A stretch of DNA of 64,000 nt from Schmidtea nova (Eukaryota): positions 410,750,001 to 410,814,000 of the forward strand of contig CM097882.1 of the NCBI GenBank assembly GCA_044892505.1, in the 5' to 3' direction. Of the stretch, positions 28,729 to 29,728 are shown one piece after another. A program made the position numbers and the translations under genes. Under the pieces are notes generated by a model, which saw only the letters and a program-made list of their open reading frames with translations, was not told where the DNA came from and searched no databases. Position 1 is the stretch's first letter, and each line of letters opens with the position of its first letter.

Positions 28729-29728
28729 TTTACGTAGTATTGTTTATCCTTACCCACCATTTTAGTTTTTAATATTTTTTGAATTCTAAATACAGTAGGC
28801 GGAGGAATAACTTGTAATTCTTGCTCGTAAAATTTCCCCCTAACTACATTATTGTCAGAGTCAGAAATAACATACATGACAGGGTCTTGGCTAGTATTAA
28901 TTTTTGAGATCTGAAATACCTCATCACTCCAATTACTATCAAAGTTTTTGATGAATGGCGAAGCGCTAATCTTGCTAATTCGAACATGATCACCAATTTT
29001 ATATTTCGGTTTATTTATACTAGTTGTTAATTTGTGAGATCCAGTATTTTTCGTTGAAACATCAACAGGTCTCAATCCATTTATACCTTTATGTGACGAA
29101 TGATTATAACTATGTATTATTTTTGGCAATACATTAATCCATGTTTTATTACCTTGATGTACAAAATACTTTTTCAAACGATCTCTTAATGTACGATTAA
29201 ATCGTTCAACATGGGCTGCTTTGAATTGAGAAAACACAGAGTAATGATTAATCCCGGCCAAAACTTCTTTAACTTTACTATTGTAAAATTCTTTACCTAA
29301 ATTATAATTAAAAATGTATAGAATAAGTATATATTCTTACCCAAATCAGTTTGTAAGTTTTTTGGACGACCGGATTTAAACATAGTTTTCATTGCAATAG
29401 CCATTTCATTTGCTGATTTAGTTTTGGTAGGAATAGCACGGGCAAATCTATTGAAGACATCGATACATGTTAAAATATATTTATATCCCTTGTTAATTTT
29501 TGAATAGGGAATCATTTCCATCAAATCCATTTGCCACAAGTCGTTAATACCATATGTTTTATATGCTCTTGTTGGAAATCTTTTCAATGCTGGTTTGTTT
29601 AGACTGTATGCCAGTTGACCCGATAACCATTTTTGAGTCTCTTTTGTCGAGTTTGGGACTTTTTTCTTTAGCTTTTCGACTCCACCGAAACCGGCGGGAT
29701 CTTTTGGGTTTGTCCATATCTTCTCCAT
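28674..29728 (-). CDS. INT: Retroviral-like integrase with C-terminal chromodomain, 336 aa, join(29728-29341, 29296-28674)
   Basis: Catalytic WQMDL, QTDLGKEF (restored by removing the 44-nt GTAAGA...TTTAG intron 29340-29297) and HVERFNRT. Chromo-like tail FRIQKIL...YYVKWHGY...SW. Confidence 0.93.

Follow-up and report, generated by a model that had tools for sequence, protein, structure and literature searches.

Polintons (Mavericks) of animals, also treated as polintoviruses or adintoviruses, are described in the available sections of the relevant papers (PMC8097293, 10.1101/2022.07.12.499685, PMC8502044) as elements with terminal inverted repeats, AGT-repeat ends and target-site duplications of 6 bp, which carry genes of a pPolB polymerase, an rve integrase with a chromodomain-like end, an ATPase, a cysteine protease and capsid proteins. 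The published core genes are intronless, as far as the accessible text of these and related sources goes. Intact vertebrate Mavericks were defined by intronless open reading frames and no introns were seen in them (PMC8097293), in nematodes introns were found in cargo genes only (10.1101/2022.07.12.499685), and endogenous viruses of the Polinton kind are said to lack introns, for which reason prokaryotic gene callers were used (PMC10120064). Spliceosomal introns in core genes are not mentioned in the accessible parts of PMC8502044, PMC6431247, PMC5718144, PMC11296320, 10.1101/2023.08.22.554363 and 10.1101/2024.03.25.586562, and a literature search conducted outside the 2006–2007 originals, Repbase, subscription papers and supplements gave no earlier description of such introns in animal Polinton core genes.

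Ginger1 DNA transposons have retroviral-like integrase/transposase genes that are likewise interrupted, by 1–4 canonical spliceosomal introns, according to the available portion of PMC2836005. Unlike Polintons, they are cut-and-paste elements without polymerase or capsid genes, and they can be likened to the case considered here by the presence of introns, not by intron position. The same portion describes Polinton integrases as being without the N-terminal zinc finger. In polinton-like viruses of dinoflagellates, spliceosomal introns lie inside the proviruses, as here, but those introners are recent insertions of intron-generating transposons, mostly acquired after integration (PMC11957031, available in part), whereas the intron described below appears to be one old intron inherited by a whole radiation. 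Group I introns are reported for cryptophyte elements in the accessible text of PMC12220804. In the Drosophila P element, retention of the third intron (IVS3) likewise halts translation before the catalytic region is complete, although the transposase is unrelated (PMC7776569, excerpt).

The present analysis concerns a stretch of 64,000 nucleotides of Schmidtea nova (GCA_044892505.1, contig CM097882.1, positions 410,750,001 to 410,814,000), hereafter the window. It contains a Polinton of 15.9 kb with the listed features of its animal relatives, the capsid genes being likely ones. In contrast to the published core genes, both its integrase and its protease are interrupted by short GT..AG introns, which are fixed in thousands of copies. 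For elements that are said to be without introns, an intron of this kind is unusual. The features of the element, in window coordinates, are the following.

18129..33985, complete Polinton/Maverick, 15,857 bp, with AGTAGT..ACTACT ends
18123..18128 (plus strand) and 33986-33991, left and right copies of the target-site duplication TTAAAC, 6 bp, which occurs only once in neighbouring tandem units without the element
18129..19219, left terminal inverted repeat, about 1.1 kb, 89–92% identical to the right repeat in self-BLAST
32929..33985, right terminal inverted repeat
19365..23528, minus strand, protein-primed polymerase (PF03175, E 6e-30, on the C-terminal 711 aa; PF02945, E 2e-4)
24278..24843, minus strand, five Asn-rich exons with four 50–51-nt phase-1 GT..AG introns, as a prediction only
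25631..25970, minus strand, cysteine protease exon 2 (Peptidase_C5 PF00770, E 1.2e-5, over the cut-off), without an in-frame ATG of its own
25971..26009, minus strand, protease intron, 39 nt, phase 2, GT..AG, directly after the start codon (ATG at 26014)
26056..27276, minus strand, candidate double-jelly-roll major capsid protein (Atlas feature matches 0.98)
27658..28704, minus strand, candidate minor capsid protein, without a family match; homologues follow the integrase in metagenome loci
28674..29296, minus strand, integrase exon 2, with the catalytic Glu, the C-terminal region and a chromodomain-like end
29297..29340, minus strand, intron in the integrase catalytic core, 44 nt, phase 1, GT..AG
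29341..29728, minus strand, integrase exon 1, from the ATG to the second catalytic Asp, 129 codons plus 1 nt
30363..30986, minus strand, packaging ATPase (Pox_A32 PF04665, E 1.4e-6)

The inverted repeats at its termini, the AGT-repeat ends and the target-site duplication of 6 bp, together with a retrovirus-like DDE integrase, an ATPase, an adenovirus-like protease and a polymerase, place the element among Polintons. Intronless core genes, a descriptive and not a defining feature in the accessible text of PMC8097293, are not found here, the integrase and the protease having introns. The product of 26056..27276 is likely the double-jelly-roll major capsid protein; it had no Pfam or PHROG match, and the Atlas clusters that it matched carry PF21738 on 15–30% of their members, with a recognition score below the strong threshold. 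By gene order, we take 27658..28704 to encode the minor capsid protein. A TATA-binding-protein-like gene (31082-31552, plus strand; PF00352, E 1e-14) is also situated inside the element.

The integrase gene starts with the ATG at 29728. Pfam rve (PF00665, E 8e-8) covers residues 62–128 of exon 1, and exon 2 consists of 206 open codons with the stop ending at 28674, is colinear with continuous homologues and matches Chromo (PF00385) with E 1.6e-4, under the curated cut-off. On the minus strand, the donor GT is at 29340 and the acceptor AG ends at 29297, the codon split by the intron being the second after the second Asp. The sequence-only reading had placed a 44-nt intron exactly here, with fusion of two open reading frames into a 336-aa D-D(31)-E enzyme upon its removal and a 143-aa protein without Glu upon its retention, and all these points were confirmed. 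Joining the exons yields a product of 336 aa (the split codon being entered as X), in which D68, D128 and E160 make up the catalytic triad and 31 residues separate E from the second D; unspliced reading leads to a stop at 143 aa, before the catalytic Glu.

In continuous homologues aligned to both exons (60–75% identity), the exon ends are separated by exactly one residue, and this gap is invariant in 114 of 120 listed proteins, namely in those showing the motif. Removal of the insert restores colinearity with the continuous homologues, as is expected of a U2-type intron; the chance of finding GTAAG and YAG at two fixed places, estimated by composition, is p ~4e-5. A continuous homologue superposes on the structure of retroviral integrase over the same Asp and Glu. 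The D-to-E spacing is 33–34 residues in 114 of the 120 homologues versus 31 in the window copy, and the shorter value results from a separate 2-residue deletion about 12 residues downstream of the junction, common to all eight intron-bearing rows checked.

Regarding the presence of the intron in related Polintons, a degenerate pattern in which the intron letters were left free detected a 31–55-nt insert at this integrase position at 10,701 genome sites versus 189 continuous sites (control value 1 for either form), which corresponds to about 57 intron-bearing sites per continuous site. The insert is not a lesion of one copy, because all 10,701 sites carry it at the same position. Among 100 listed sites, 99 inserts begin with GT and one with GC, and all end with AG (scored by eye). 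In the family of the window copy, a search by exon flanks found the insert at 1,284 sites and a version shortened by deletion at one, whereas continuous sites were not found. The same 44 nt were present in all 30 best genome matches, obtained with a query that itself included the insert, and when the first 40 copies of this family by position were retrieved by their exon flanks only, all 40 showed GT..AG, with both exons open in 26. Across families, the introns are 40–48 nt long, with lengths in all three frames, 12% GC and an unalignable interior; donor positions +3 to +5 differ between families, while GT and AG stay fixed. The Polinton integrase load of the 1.25-Gb genome is very large, at least 10,700 sites or about one per 117 kb, distributed among several families.

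Both exons evolve under constraint. In 81 divergent pairs of 146 within the family, which are not independent of one another, pN/pS was 0.013/0.22 and 0.020/0.176 for the two exons (~0.06 and 0.11), and the same pairs had 0 differences in the terminal 12 intron nucleotides against 0.15 in the interior. Between the window copy and seven other intron-bearing lineages, pN/pS was 0.08–0.21 in both exons at pS up to 0.68, and the catalytic D, D and E are intact in 10 of 10 intron-bearing rows. It appears that only removal of the insert at the RNA level would explain selection on the exons, fixed GT/AG and a drifting interior at once. The pseudogene reading is ruled out by purifying selection on both exons across the intron-bearing lineages. 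The retained GT/AG, the drift of interior and length and this selection argue strongly, on comparative grounds, that the core of a Polinton integrase contains a spliceosomal intron, as the earlier reading had proposed. Surveys that assume intronless genes would score about 98% of the detectable integrase sites of this genome as broken or split, despite the purifying selection.

Four sequencing runs mapped over 19400–32800 fill all 30 bins, intergenic bins included, and are probably DNA and uninformative on splicing; the integrase junction was not among the 15 of 1,047 read joints listed from them. One loose read end presumably resembles a tagmentation adaptor.

In our opinion, a single gain of the intron, in the ancestor of the Polinton lineage that is most abundant in this genome, is quite probable, and the host spliceosome would likely remove the intron as a matter of routine, so that a full-length DDE integrase results. 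The element would be transcribed in the nucleus, the intron, similar in size to predicted host introns of 46–55 nt, would be removed by the major spliceosome, and unspliced transcripts would probably be lost via their premature stop, such transcripts being subject to nonsense-mediated decay. Constitutive splicing serves here as the default assumption. The length of 44 nt, as well as the 37–40 nt of the protease intron, is slightly under that of the predicted host introns, and splicing could be inefficient.

As to the origin of the intron, a tree of 32 rows places the ten integrases that have it in one clade (99/97), nested among the 22 continuous ones. Of 20 loci of other families, the six with open exons were used for it and 14 were left out; also left out were 11 degraded rows of the 14 intronless ones in an earlier tree, which have long branches and for the most part frameshifts. 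The 14 minor intronless pattern matches are all degraded. All 43 metagenome loci covering the site are continuous (42 by the test, and one with Asn for Asp and no insert). The database homologues are skewed to intronless genes by ORF callers, which makes the outgroup argument somewhat weaker, but metagenome DNA loci are less affected. Among continuous relatives, the nearest (77% identity) is another family of this genome, and no relative was found in the viral_contigs scan. A single, old and functional gain would be the simplest reading of these data. The intron ends do not resemble the flanking exon beyond the splice consensus, 1057 and 1969 of 2000 shuffles reaching the observed scores. Origin by tandem duplication or from an introner is not supported, as the scores are not above those of shuffles, although an old signature could have decayed.

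Two database proteins (P0121 and P0122) stop 3 and 6 residues past the second Asp and group weakly with the intron clade (SH-aLRT 81–93), and so do P0053 and P0047, which comprise exon 2 only, and a part of P0001. Contigs of matching length suggest that proteins of the P0121/P0122 type may be products of split genes, and the grouping hints that the intron may be present in other data sets, too; 16 of 22 short homologues showing the motif are plainly continuous. A candidate intronless close relative (L111 and L112, G000:C1:603078000-603097999) proved to be a degenerate copy of the intron clade with an in-frame 12-nt intron remnant. This copy is without most of the polymerase and was left out of the trees.

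The sequence-only reading had also suggested that integration could be controlled by splicing, as P-element transposase is restricted to the germline. In such a gate, the intron would be retained in most cells and spliced only in germ or stem cells or on a lapse of piRNA control, like the third P element intron. We regard such a regulated gate as unlikely. It would suit the position of the intron between the second Asp and Glu, where retention means an absolute off state. The retained reading stops within 3–15 codons in 19 of 20 copies of other families, and within the sampled clade, which has radiated deeply, no case of intron loss was seen. However, any stop-bearing intron truncates its protein, and the protease has one as well. 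The retained product has 133–143 aa within the family and unrelated tails across families, one 42-nt copy even being read through in frame, and such varying tails give no sign of selection on a repressor form. This product would be without the Glu helix and the C-terminal half with all its domains, half an integrase catalytic core is unlikely to fold, and Polinton integrases have no N-terminal zinc finger, whereas the P repressor keeps its DNA-binding domain. According to the excerpt of PMC7776569, IVS3 regulation involves an exonic silencer with pseudo-donors and a DNA-binding 66-kDa repressor, and neither has an evident counterpart in the Polinton integrase: a crude word test of the final 100 nt of exon 1 in the window copy detected no pseudo-donor, the interior has no conserved motif, and donor positions +3 to +5 vary. 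The missing motifs are not decisive, since piRNA-directed retention in the P element requires no special target sequence in the account of the same excerpt. The two constitutive introns that the P element also has, as mentioned there, are more similar to the integrase intron considered here. No tested sequence feature (tail, pseudo-donor, donor positions, protease intron) supports the proposed switch. It keeps a small share of probability because chromatin-linked retention would leave no mark in the sequence. Equally doubtful is the wider view that the host spliceosome might gate the integrase by cell state or by piRNA-directed retention, with a tamed lineage of >10,000 copies and a rare intronless sister. 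Planarian Polintons are silenced by a PIWI protein at the chromatin level and derepressed in differentiation, according to the available part of PMC8532177, so that the known control would sit at transcription.

It is very improbable that routine splicing is in addition advantageous, licensing expression through export or escape from anti-intronless silencing, and that it helped the lineage to outnumber its sister. The prevalence of intron-bearing sites, the presence of several introns in one element and the silencing of intronless mobile elements by HUSH in vertebrates (PMC8770142, accessible part) agree with this idea, but one lineage contrast is a single evolutionary event, and the sister with the intronless integrase carries the protease intron and so is not intron-free. 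Hardly any credence is given by us to the view that the insert is a disabling intron-like lesion, the lineage being unable to provide its own integrase and depending for its mobility on the intronless sister acting in trans. Open 340-aa integrases do occur in an intronless family (189 pattern sites), which could supply integrase in trans; yet both exons are under purifying selection in lineages with pS up to 0.68, all of which carry the insert, GT/AG is fixed while the interior turns over, the D, D and E are kept in every row, and the two intronless elements examined are palindromic and without polymerase.

The integrase intron most likely reflects long residence of the element among short AT-rich introns and is not an integrase-specific device, because it is one of several introns in the element, along with those of the protease and those predicted between exons that lie upstream of the polymerase. 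Only with its 39-nt intron taken out does the protease gain an in-frame start. An intron of 37–40 nt was found at this place in 30 of 32 copies with the protease motif, the remaining two having a changed acceptor. It is present also in the sister with the intronless integrase (L107) and in the metagenome loci L120 and L123 (two of seven loci with a protease), but five loci that are more distant do not have it there. To judge from this wider spread, in the intronless-integrase sister and two metagenome loci, the protease intron is older than the integrase one. Such elements would depend on nuclear splicing and would gain introns stepwise, in the protease first and in the integrase later.

Beyond the predicted Asn-rich exons, a fifth donor is situated at 24277, and the polymerase frame contains an acceptor of matching phase at 23594, via which these exons could form the N-terminus of the polymerase. 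A crude pattern found Asn-rich exon candidates in 22 of 40 other copies; the chain is partly repeated and varies between copies. A greedy search at five loci predicted host chaperonin introns of 46, 48, 51, 53 and 55 nt, as well as two less certain ones of 106 and 110 nt. The element looks generally adapted to a small-intron host. The C-terminal segment of chaperonin (Cpn60/TCP1; profile positions ~347–488) occurs as dozens of dispersed genome copies, some in long open frames and often paired 4.6–5.4 kb apart, and may be carried by a repeat as cargo.

The majority of sites with an intronless integrase, frequently in pairs spaced 7.25 kb apart, belong to a palindromic Polinton derivative (L107 and L108, G000:C1:17241000-17260000; L109 and L110). 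Its two 6.85-kb arms are 99.8% identical, face each other head to head across a partial protease and each contain genes of ATPase, integrase and capsid. In the two palindromic elements examined, an ORF of a polymerase was not found, and this structure makes the intronless elements look like the ones that depend on others. These Polintons, which combine thousands of copies with an intronless sister and with a second intron that can serve as an internal control, are a system in which limitation of integration by splicing is testable by RNA-seq.

The element is surrounded by a tandem array (1-18122 and 33991-54467) of ~1,288-bp units, 95–100% identical and each with a 118–122-aa ORF, with hints of higher-order periodicity. 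Past the array, at 54500-63700, fragments of other DNA transposons were recognized by eye, including mariner-like and other transposase-like frames.
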